Assembly: GCA_026413805.1 (NCBI GenBank)
Contig: JAOAKE010000002.1
Span: forward strand, 3,599 to 67,598
Source of the DNA: Candidatus Micrarchaeota archaeon
GTDB taxonomy: Archaea; Micrarchaeota; Micrarchaeia; Anstonellales; Anstonellaceae
Reading direction: 5' to 3'
Length of the DNA stretch: 64,000 nt
Both the position numbers and the translations under genes were made by a program. Of this stretch, positions 46,402 to 59,697 are shown piece by piece. The notes under the pieces were generated by a model. The model worked only from the letters and a program-made list of their open reading frames with translations, was not told the DNA's origin and made no database searches. The stretch's first letter is position 1, and every line of letters starts with the position of its first letter.

Positions 46402-47295
46402 ATGGCGCACCCAGAACTTGGCGAGCTTTTAAAATGCTCCTTTTTAATAGTTGACAAGCCCATCGGCCCTTCTTCTCACGAGGTCACTTCCTTTGTGCGC
46501 AAGATGCTTGGCGTTAAAAAGGCAGGGCATTCTGGCACCCTTGACCCGCAGGTTTCAGGCGTGCTTCCTGTCGGGGTTGGAAAAGCTACCCGCCTGCTTC
46601 AATACCTTGCGGCCAAGGACAAAAAATATGTCTGCCTGATGAAGACAGGGAGGAAGATGGGCAAAGAAGAGATAGAGCAGCTGTTTGAGTCATTCACAGG
46701 AACCATCGTGCAGACTCCCCCAAAAGAGAGCGCGGTCAGCAAAAAGCCCCGCCAACGCAAGGTTTTTTATATCCATCTCCTCCAATTACAGTCCACGAAG
46801 GTGCTTTTCGAGGTGCACTGCGAGGCTGGGACCTATATTCGTGTCCTGGTCTCGGATTTTGCTCCGCATTGCGGCGGTGCAAAGATGCTTGAGTTGAGGC
46901 GGATATCAGTTGGCCCGATAACTGAATCCTCTGCTCACACTTTGCAAGAGATATCTGACGCGATGTGGCTTGCACAAGAAAAGCGCGACGAGTCGGCAAT
47001 AAGAAAAATGCTTTTGCCGGCGTCTGAGGCGCTCTCCCTTCCGAAGATGGTGCTGCAGGACTCCGCTGTGGAGTCGGTCTGCGCAGGCTCAGGGCTTTAT
47101 CGCCCAGGGCTTCTTGGCTTTGACCAAGGCATCAATGAGGGGGAAGAGGTCGCCCTCATGACGAGGAAGGGGGAGCTGGTTGGCGTTGGGCGCGCAACAG
47201 CTTCTTCTTCGGAAATCACGAAAATGAAAAGCGGCTGTGTTGCATCGCCGCTTACAATAGTAATGGAGCGCGGAACTTACCCGCGAAAATGGTAA
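46402..47295 (+). CDS. cbf5: tRNA/rRNA pseudouridine synthase Cbf5 (TruB family, with PUA domain)
   Basis: The catalytic motif HSGTLDPQVSGVLPVGV and a C-terminal PUA domain are present. Confidence 0.88.
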   Translation: MAHPELGELLKCSFLIVDKPIGPSSHEVTSFVRKMLGVKKAGHSGTLDPQVSGVLPVGVGKATRLLQYLAAKDKKYVCLMKTGRKMGKEEIEQLFESFTGTIVQTPPKESAVSKKPRQRKVFYIHLLQLQSTKVLFEVHCEAGTYIRVLVSDFAPHCGGAKMLELRRISVGPITESSAHTLQEISDAMWLAQEKRDESAIRKMLLPASEALSLPKMVLQDSAVESVCAGSGLYRPGLLGFDQGINEGEEVALMTRKGELVGVGRATASSSEITKMKSGCVASPLTIVMERGTYPRKW

Positions 47296-47500
47296 TGGGA
47301 GGCGAGTGAGCCGGGATCGCATAACCTGGTAGTGCGCATGCCTGGAGTGTTTTTCCCGATAGCATGTGGTCGCAAGGCCGTATGGGTTCCGGCAGGTGCC
47401 CCTGAGTTTGTTGTTCTTGGGGCGTGTGCCGCCCAAAAAAGCTCAGGCGGGGAAAACGCCTGCCACAGGGCTGAAAGTCCCATTCCCGGCGCTTCCCTTT
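47296..47500 (+). ncRNA. candidate structured ncRNA (~200 nt) between cbf5 and rps13; possibly a reduced RNase P RNA (alternatively SRP RNA)
   Basis: The terminal helix GGGAGGCG(47297-304)/CGCUUCCC(47490-97) extends to CCGGGA(47311-16)/UCCCGG(47484-89). GNRA-like hairpin CAGGCG-GGGAAAA-CGCCUG. GCAAGGCCGUAUGGGUUCC resembles the RNase P J11/12 motif AGCAAGGCCAAAUAGGGGUUC. CCGGGAUCGCAUA is reminiscent of CR-I (GUCCGGGCUCCAUA). ACAG precedes the 3' strand. It is GC-rich and has no ORF. Confidence 0.35.
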
Positions 47501-47555
47501 ACTAAAGGAGCAATCATGGCAGAGGCTCGGAATTGCCAAGAATTAAGGTGAAAAA

Positions 47556-48239
47556 ATGCCTGAAGACTTCAAGAAAGCAGAGAAATATGAAGAGAAGAAA
47601 AAGGACAGGTCAGCTCCTGCGCAGCGCAAGCCGCCGCAGCAGGCAGGAAAGCCGATCATTTCCCCTTCGGGAAAAGAAGTGCGGGGAGTGGTTCGGCTTG
47701 CAGGAAAAGACCTCCGCGGAACTCTTCCAATCAACCGCGCCATCGTTGCTGTAAAGGGGGTTGGGATTAACCTTGGCACAGTCCTCTCTTCAATTGCAAT
47801 TGAGAAGCTGCAAGTGAATGACAAAACCCTCCTTGGCGAGCTTTCAGAGGAGCAGATTCACCAGCTAGAGCACATACTGGCGCATCCCAAAGAATACGGA
47901 GTTCCCTCGTGGATGCTAAACAGGCAAAAGGACTTGCTCTCTGGGGAAGACCTGCACCTGATAGGCTCTGATTTAACGTTTGCCGTAAAGCAGGACATTG
48001 AGCATGAAAAGGAAATTAACAGCTGGAGAGGGTTCCGCCACGCCTACGGGCAAAAGGTGCGCGGCCAGCACACCCGCAGCACCGGCAGGACAGGCATGAC
48101 CGTAGGAGTTCTTAGGAAATCTGTGCTTGCAAAGGCAGGTGCAGCCGCCCAGGCAACTGGGGCAAAGGCACAGCAGGCTTCTGCAGCTGCGGCAAAGCCC
48201 TCTGCTGCACCGCAAAAGAAAGAGGAGGCTAAAAAGTGA
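47556..48239 (+). CDS. rps13: ribosomal protein S13 with ~70-aa N-terminal low-complexity extension
   Basis: S13 core (GKDLRGTLPINRAIVAVKGVGINLG...). Ala/Gln-rich C-terminal tail. Confidence 0.88.
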   Translation: MPEDFKKAEKYEEKKKDRSAPAQRKPPQQAGKPIISPSGKEVRGVVRLAGKDLRGTLPINRAIVAVKGVGINLGTVLSSIAIEKLQVNDKTLLGELSEEQIHQLEHILAHPKEYGVPSWMLNRQKDLLSGEDLHLIGSDLTFAVKQDIEHEKEINSWRGFRHAYGQKVRGQHTRSTGRTGMTVGVLRKSVLAKAGAAAQATGAKAQQASAAAAKPSAAPQKKEEAKK

Positions 48240-59472: not shown

Positions 59473-59697
59473 AGCCCCCGGCGAGGATCGAACTCGCTAC
59501 CTGTTGTTTTCTTGTTGTTACTTCTCAGGCTTCCCTTGGGAAGTAACGTAGAAACCCGCCCGCAGTTTCGCAAGGGGGTTTCTCGCCCAGTTCCGCTCTG
59601 TTTGGTGTTCGGGAGGAAGTAACGTAGAAACCCGCCCGCAGTTTCGCAAGGGGGTTTCTCGTACAAGACAACCGCTCTACCAATGAGCTACGGGGGC
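59473..59697 (-). tRNA. tRNA-Thr(UGU) with a 153-nt canonical-position (37/38) intron containing a tandem 46-nt direct repeat
   Basis: Minus-strand exon 1 (59697-59662): GCCCCCG-TA-GCTC-ATTGGTA-GAGC-G-GTTGT-CTTGTA. Exon 2 (59508-59473): A-ACAAC-AGGTA-GCGAG-TTCGATC-CTCGC-CGGGGGC-T. The acceptor, D, anticodon and T stems all pair perfectly. The intron is 59509-59661. Confidence 0.8.
59540..59661. repeat. two copies of a 46-nt direct repeat (GAAGTAACGTAGAAACCCGCCCGCAGTTTCGCAAGGGGGTTTCTCG) at 59540-59585 and 59616-59661, inside the tRNA-Thr intron
   Basis: The copies are exactly identical and start 76 nt apart (30-nt spacer). Each contains an internal inverted repeat GAAACCC...GGGTTTC. Confidence 0.85.

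Follow-up and report, generated by a model that had tools for sequence, protein, structure and literature searches.

The segment at 47310-47491 (+) of the 64,000-nucleotide stretch of Micrarchaeota (DPANN) DNA analyzed here (hereafter, the window) is, with a probability of about 0.97, a gene for tRNA-Ser(GGA). In our model, the gene is divided into four exons of 38, 29, 3, and 14 nt by three protein-spliced archaeal introns of the bulge-helix-bulge (BHB) type, of 13, 47, and 38 nt, located at tRNA positions 37/38, 56/57, and 59/60. We consider this combination of gene identity and intron architecture highly probable, and the presence of three introns rather than two very likely. Standard tRNA finders miss the gene because the three short introns split it into four pieces; disruption of tRNA genes is already known from this lineage.

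The gene lies within a segment (47296-47500, + strand) between cbf5 (46402-47295; Pfam TruB_N, PUA, and TruB_C_2, with a weak match to DKCLD) and rps13 (47556-48239; Pfam Ribosomal_S13) that the initial annotation had singled out as GC-rich and ORF-free. Its GC content is ∼60%, compared with ∼50% in the surroundings, and the only ORFs crossing it are short (57-115 aa), overlapping, mechanical calls. The predicted fold is a closed structure of several helices with an MFE of -89 kcal/mol, which is only modestly better than the folds of dinucleotide shuffles (z = -2.2; 7 of 200 shuffles fold equally well). The opposite strand folds more weakly (z = -1.3) and lacks tRNA features, and a gene on that strand was rejected. 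No TATA-like box was found upstream of the tRNA gene. On the downstream side, in the interval 47498-47555, ∼55 nt separate the trailer TTTACTAAAGG from the rps13 start codon, and AAGGTGA precedes that codon.

By eye, the 5' part of the gene can be read as GCCGGGA-UC followed by a typical archaeal D-arm, GCAU-AACCUGGUA-GUGC, and the 3' end as CCCAU-UCCCGGC-G. ARAGORN finds 0 tRNAs in the raw window. When 47390-47474 is removed in silico, ARAGORN run with the -i option calls a tRNA-Ser(gga) with a 13-nt anticodon-loop intron, i(39,13), and when both inserts are removed the same tRNA is called without the need for -i. In-silico splicing leaves an 84-nt class-II tRNA in which all four stems and a long variable arm are present: the acceptor stem has 7 bp, the D stem 4 bp (including U13.G22), the anticodon stem (CAUGC/GCAUG) 5 bp, and the T stem (AUGGG/CCCAU) 5 bp, and the variable arm reads GGUC-GCAA-GGCC. 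The anticodon GGA is at 47344-46, the discriminator base G73 is G47491, and CCA is not encoded. The tertiary nucleotides, read from the spliced sequence GCCGGGAUCGCAUAACCUGGUAGUGCG...GGGUUCAAAUCCC, are all present (U8, A14, G18 G19, U33, G53, U54 U55 C56, A58, and C61), as are the long variable arm, G73, and the serine anticodon, which are serine identity elements in archaea. The unspliced sequence does not match the Rfam tRNA model RF00005, either at the gathering score or in a local search at E<=10, as expected for a gene carrying 98 nt of inserts; an orthologue with near-identical exons and no T-loop intron (L032) scores 50.1 bits, compared with a gathering score of 29.

A protein search with Cbf5 identified 15 genome loci, all from Micrarchaeota MAGs with 60-77% identity, and the same tRNA gene is found directly downstream of cbf5 in 15/15 of them. 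A metagenome scan based on an exon 2 pattern contributed a further 34 loci, of which one is a false match and several are truncated; altogether there are 41 fully parsed loci besides that of the window, 15 from genomes and 26 from metagenomes. ARAGORN calls tRNA-Ser(gga) in all 17 of the in-silico spliced sequences submitted to it. Counting that of the window, there are 12 distinct mature sequences, each exactly 84 nt long, and the window sequence differs from that of two relatives (L002/L003) only at nt 37. Across these 12 sequences, 99.3% of the cloverleaf cells are paired, compared with 32-57% when the partner strand is slid by 1-3 columns, and there are four compensatory pairs (5:68, 7:66, 29:41, and 49:65 in tRNA numbering). 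The initial proposal of a structured non-coding RNA, as opposed to an untranslated region of a neighboring gene, is upheld, in the form of a conserved tRNA gene with compensatory stem changes.

The exon boundaries rest on ARAGORN calls on the spliced sequence and on pair counts and, for exon 1, also on the orthologues. Exon 1 (nt 1-37; 47310-47347) contains GCCGGGA, U8, the D-arm, CAUGC, and the loop nucleotides C32 U33 G34 G35 A36 G37, and is identical or almost so in the 41 orthologous loci. Exon 2 (nt 38-56; 47361-47389) contains A38, GCAUG, the variable arm, the T-stem 5' strand AUGGG, and U54 U55 C56, and exon 4 (nt 60-73; 47478-47491) contains U60, the T-stem 3' strand CCCAU, the acceptor 3' strand UCCCGGC, and G73. 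Exon 3 (nt 57-59; 47437-47439) is a putative 3-nt micro-exon, AAA, defined by the two BHB motifs that flank it; with it, the T-loop becomes UUCAAAU, which is invariant across all orthologues. Among the orthologues, the inserts are hypervariable in both length and sequence, with lengths of 0-142 nt for the anticodon-loop insert and 33-130 nt for the T-loop insert.

The structure of the ARMAN-2 endonuclease with RNA shows cleavage by the 2'-OH of the second of three bulged nucleotides (PMC12397907), and we used this rule to place the cuts at each insert. Every insert is flanked by a BHB-type motif, and in each case the conserved mature sequence is obtained when the cuts are placed behind the second nucleotide of the bulge. 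Intron 1 (47348-47360; UGUUUUUCCCGAU), located by ARAGORN -i, the precursor MFE, and the orthologues, has a relaxed hBH (bulge-helix-loop) motif in which C32 U33 G34 G35 face CCCG 47355-58 in helix H (3 pairs and a U33.C mismatch), the 3' splice site lies inside a 3-nt bulge (A47359 U47360 | A38) beside the anticodon stem, and the remaining intron nucleotides make up the loop. The 3-nt bulge and the helix are both part of the MFE structure of the unspliced precursor. Intron 1 is missing from several orthologues (L008, L009, L014, and others) and measures 16-142 nt in the remaining ones. The long 37/38 introns (56-142 nt; L001/L029, L003, L007/L035, L010, L012, L017-L019, L025, L028, L036, and L048) share a common start (NNCCCUUUU..CGCCUCC...) and repeated CGGAAAA motifs, suggesting a single intron family that grows and shrinks by insertion of internal hairpins; one of these loci, L025, also has an unusually long and unrelated T-loop intron of 130 nt.

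Intron 2 (47390-47436) is supported by the precursor MFE, by covariation, and by its absence from L032, in which GGGTTCAAATCCCAT is contiguous and the intron is precisely lacking. Its motif is a relaxed HBh' without an outer helix h: helix H pairs GGGU 47384-87 (nt 51-54) with GCCC 47431-34 (4/4), the bulges are U55 C56 | C47390 and A47435 A47436 | A57, and helix h' pairs GGCA 47391-94 with UGCC 47427-30 and is lengthened into a hairpin. The H / 3-nt bulge / h' arrangement appears in the MFE structure of the unspliced precursor. We tabulated the motif for the window and the 15 genome loci, and in the 25 distinct sequences taken from the full set of parsed loci, pairing in H is complete (100%) and 5 pairs of h' are changed on both sides; the covariation score is 0.314, compared with 0.165 in shuffles, and 0 of 500 shuffles score as high.

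Intron 3 (47440-47477; AGCUCAGGCGGGGAAAACGCCUGCCACAGGGCUGAAAG), which was located by a splice-site scan and by comparison with the orthologues, is found only in the window and is precisely absent from all 41 other loci. The conserved 56/57 motif ends at 47436 in the window, leaving 38 extra nt relative to the 41 orthologues. On the intron-2-spliced intermediate, these can be drawn as a strict hBHBh' motif, with the T stem AUGGG/CCCAU as h (3 pairs scored, 3/3), U54 U55 C56 A57 paired with UGAA 47472-75 as H (4/4), bulges A58 A59 | A47440 and A47476 G47477 | U60, and GCUC 47441-44 paired with GGGC 47468-71 as h' (4/4). Of all the pairs of splice sites compatible with a T-loop of 7 nt, only 59/60 yields H 4/4, h' 4/4, and h 3/3, and with these cuts the T-loop again reads UUCAAAU, as it does in every orthologue. 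Shuffling the insert reproduces the motif at 59/60 in 4 of 100000 cases and at any site in 57 of 100000. No copies of the intron 3 hairpin (<=3 mismatches) are found elsewhere in the window.

Two readings of the T-loop region compete with the three-intron model. In the first, the gene has only two introns, the canonical 13-nt intron and a single 85-nt T-loop intron (47390-47474) whose removal leaves the T-loop UUCAAGU; the product is also accepted by ARAGORN, and UUCAAGU is compatible with the general T-loop consensus. However, no BHB links 47389/90 to 47474/75 (H 3/4, h' 0/4), the conserved 56/57 BHB stops at 47436 just as it does in the orthologues, and the orthologues all have UUCAAAU, and we therefore regard the single T-loop intron as improbable. 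In the second, the gene is a tRNA-Ser(GGA) pseudogene, inactivated by the window-specific 38-nt T-loop insertion. This would fit with the presence of the insertion in 0 of the 41 other loci and with the fact that its BHB is not the MFE structure of the intermediate, in which RNAfold favors AGCUC/GGGCU with a 6x6 internal loop; for the local T-arm fragment, the preference is -27.6 compared with -17.6 kcal/mol for the intron 3 BHB drawing. Bulged, AU-rich BHB motifs are usually not MFE structures. The support for the structure assigned to intron 3 accordingly comes from the match to the motif rather than from folding energies. Against a pseudogene stand the full hBHBh' motif at exactly the position where the conserved T-loop is restored, a coincidence seen at the shuffle frequency given above for 59/60, and the exons themselves, in which all stems are intact and only one loop position differs from the orthologues, making inactivation slightly less probable still than the two-intron reading.

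Outside the mature tRNA, the leader and trailer form a second conserved helix, identified by RNAduplex and from the orthologous loci, with its 5' strand at 47290-47303 (+) and its 3' strand at 47491-47504 (+). The core pairs GGGAGGC 47297-303 with GCUUCCC 47491-97, starting at the discriminator G73, and the outer part pairs UGGUAA 47290-95, which includes the cbf5 stop codon (UAA, 47293-95), with UUACUA 47499-504; U47296 and U47498 are mismatched, and GAGUGA 47304-09 is left unpaired between the leader strand and G1 of the tRNA. The duplex energy is -19.7 to -22.1 kcal/mol. A GGUAA-N-GGGxxxx / xxxxCCC-N-UUAC arrangement is present in most orthologous loci, with core sequences that differ but remain complementary (GGGAAG/CUUCCC, GGGGCAC/GUGCCCC, GGAAUAC/GUAUUCC, and GGGGAAC/GUUCCC), and the mean duplex energy is -14.7 kcal/mol for cognate leader-trailer combinations, compared with -10.9 kcal/mol for non-cognate ones. 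Among the orthologues, the 3' strand always starts at or beside G73, and the 5' strand is located 2-124 nt upstream of G1. Stacked on the acceptor stem, the helix probably clamps the ends of the long, insert-laden precursor. A BHB within the helix, through which the splicing endonuclease could cut out the tRNA in the way known for rRNA, was considered and rejected, there being no staggered 3-nt bulges: by eye, the helix in the window and in several relatives contains only 1x1/2x1 internal loops and a variable 5'-side bulge. Most orthologous trailers keep a TTTAC sequence that belongs to the leader-trailer helix, so the helix and a promoter-like element for rps13 may overlap.

In ∼17 relatives (L009-L012, L015-L019, L023, L024, L028, L031, L036, L037, and L047), a partial copy of the tRNA 5' end (GCCGGGGUCGC) lies 50-115 nt ahead of the 5' end of tRNA-Ser. 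Next come a covarying hairpin of 7-9 bp (CAACUUC/GAAGUUG, CAAAUCUG/CAGAUUUG, CAGCAUC/GAUGCUG), GGGAACUCGGC, which can pair with the copy, and a small hairpin with a GAA loop. The entire element is placed after the leader strand of the leader-trailer helix and before the real tRNA; the window lacks it. A BHB intron at 7/8 (H = CCGG/CCGG) was tried as an account of the duplicated 5' end and rejected, the fit being partial and limited to some loci.

Taken together, the tRNA-Ser(GGA) cloverleaf, the three BHB introns, and the leader-trailer stem explain every helix that had been listed in the initial annotation, and the cloverleaf, the 56/57 BHB, and the leader-trailer helix are all kept and covary in relatives. 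What had been described as one long terminal helix does pair, but is really the acceptor stem plus the separate leader-trailer helix. Its CCGGGA/UCCCGG portion is a real helix and part of the tRNA acceptor stem (GCCGGGA 47310-16 / UCCCGGC 47484-90); its GGGAGGCG/CGCUUCCC portion corresponds to the leader-trailer helix with G73, although the eighth pair quoted competes with G1-C72. Likewise, the proposed GNRA-capped hairpin CAGGCG-GGGAAAA-CGCCUG exists (47444-47462), but it has a 7-nt loop instead of a GNRA tetraloop and lies within an intron.

The initial identification of the segment as a reduced RNase P RNA or SRP RNA can be given almost no weight. The segment shares with archaeal RNase P RNA (types A, M, and T) and SRP RNA a high GC content, a length of the order of ∼200-300 nt, and a closed terminal helix, short strings in it resemble CR-I and J11/12, and Rpp29 is, according to the initial annotation, encoded in the window. 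We searched the whole window against Rfam 15 with cmscan at gathering thresholds, without a match, and rescanned 47150-47650 permissively at E<=10, where the only matches were chance ones (mir-646 and SOX2OT_exon1); neither search matched RNaseP_arch, RNaseP-T, Archaea_SRP, or any other relevant model. There is, moreover, no P4 pseudoknot, and the CR-I and J11/12 resemblances have no covariance-model support: the strings are the tRNA 5' end plus D-arm (the supposed CR-I string is tRNA nt 1-14) and the variable arm plus T-stem, such that the "conserved" strings are tRNA exons. The interior, in contrast, is not conserved among the orthologues, and inner parts that vary between 0 and 142 nt and between 33 and 130 nt do not fit a catalytic or SRP core. 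An H/ACA guide RNA hidden in the insert (GGCAGG 47392-97 ... CCUGCC 47460-65, a 6-bp helix directly followed by ACA, downstream of the gene for the H/ACA pseudouridine synthase Cbf5), or a C/D-box guide, is equally negligible, since the helix would extend from intron 2 across exon 3 into intron 3, would be incompatible with the conserved BHB helices with which it competes, and is missing from all orthologues, and since there is no H/ACA or C/D match in the two Rfam searches, no C box, and no K-turn or K-loop.

The arrangement of the tRNA-Ser(GGA) motifs suggests how the precursor may be processed. By analogy with ARMAN-2, it would be cut by a broad-specificity splicing endonuclease of the lineage (of the epsilon2 type in ARMAN-2) and rejoined by an RNA ligase. 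In the primary transcript, G51-U54 would pair with the intron 2 sequence GCCC, a decoy of the T-stem 3' strand, and thereby display the 56/57 sites; once exons 2 and 3 had been ligated, the true T stem would form and U54-A57 would pair with UGAA to display the 59/60 sites, such that a refolding step would separate the removal of intron 2 from that of intron 3. Because the H(a) element of intron 3 spans the exon 2/exon 3 junction, it can exist only after removal of intron 2 and ligation; together with the decoy pairing, this leads to the prediction that intron 2 is removed before intron 3. Removing intron 2 first would also avoid release of the 3-nt exon as a free trinucleotide. From the modeled pairings, we lean toward ordered splicing of the T-loop. 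The tRNA is probably co-transcribed with cbf5, and its release from the transcript would be carried out by RNase P and RNase Z. The full scenario, in which two-step T-loop splicing via the micro-exon is obligatory and a conserved clamp marks the tRNA between cbf5 and rps13, probably within one transcript, is a tentative one, to which we give slightly less than even odds. If true, it would be a clear natural case, in a DPANN archaeon, of a splice site created by a preceding tRNA splicing event. The reviews consulted make no mention of a splicing order in archaeal tRNAs, and the 3-nt exon makes this order testable in vitro with the already crystallized ARMAN-2 endonuclease.

The window contains a second disrupted tRNA gene, at 59473-59697 (-), that is likewise missed by ARAGORN with default settings and by Rfam at the gathering score. 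With the -i option, ARAGORN reports it as "Ser(tga) i(36,153)"; according to our own parse of the sequence, it is a putative tRNA-Thr(UGU) gene, reading GCCCCCG / D-arm GCUC-AUUGGUA-GAGC / GUUGU-CUUGUA|...|A-ACAAC / GCGAG-UUCGAUC-CUCGC / CGGGGGC-U and interrupted by a canonical 37/38 intron of 153 nt (59509-59661). Unlike the serine gene, it is preceded at ∼30 nt by a TTTAAAA box of its own, and a T-run follows it. The intron contains two exact 46-nt direct copies of GAGAAACCCCCTTGCGAAACTGCGGGCGGGTTTCTACGTTACTTCC, 30 nt apart (59539-59584 and 59615-59660, - strand), which look like an internal duplication within a tRNA intron.

A real and probably essential tRNA gene can thus be invisible to ARAGORN and to Rfam at the curated threshold because of its non-canonical introns. 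Where tRNAs appear to be "missing" from DPANN genomes, or where GC-rich intergenic "novel RNAs" are found, disrupted tRNAs should be checked for first. The ∼41 orthologous loci provide a compact natural record of how introns have been gained, lost, and resized at three sites within a single gene.

The closest known system is that of ARMAN-2, also a member of the Micrarchaeota, in which 56% of the tRNA genes are disrupted, the epsilon2 endonuclease cuts both strict and relaxed BHB motifs, including in vitro a 13-nt hBH intron, and tRNA-Pro(GGG) has two T-loop introns, at 53/54 and 59/60 (PMC3239211). Besides the phylum, the window gene has in common with this system the non-canonical T-loop BHB introns, the placement of two introns in one T-loop, the short introns with relaxed motifs, and the intron at 59/60 (PMC3239211). 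It differs from the ARMAN-2 tRNA-Pro(GGG) gene in being a Ser GGA gene with 56/57, 59/60, and canonical introns (i.e., three in total), in having an exon of 3 nt rather than 6 nt between the T-loop introns, and in having a second T-loop motif that spans the first splice junction. In the Thermoproteales, tRNA genes may contain up to three introns (PMC4033280). As summarized in PMC4033280 and PMC4090602 from Sugahara et al. 2007/2008, these multi-intron genes share with the window gene the relaxed HBh'/hBH motifs and are missed by standard finders, but the Thermoproteales are Crenarchaeota with an (alpha-beta)2 endonuclease whereas the window organism belongs to the DPANN, and in the series analyzed here introns come and go in a lineage-specific way at three sites within one orthologous gene. 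Multi-intron tRNAs, including those with two introns per T-loop, are already described for ARMAN-2, and in the tRNA-Ser(GGA) gene the 56/57 plus 59/60 pair with its 3-nt exon, and the junction-dependent second motif, amount to a neat but modest variation.
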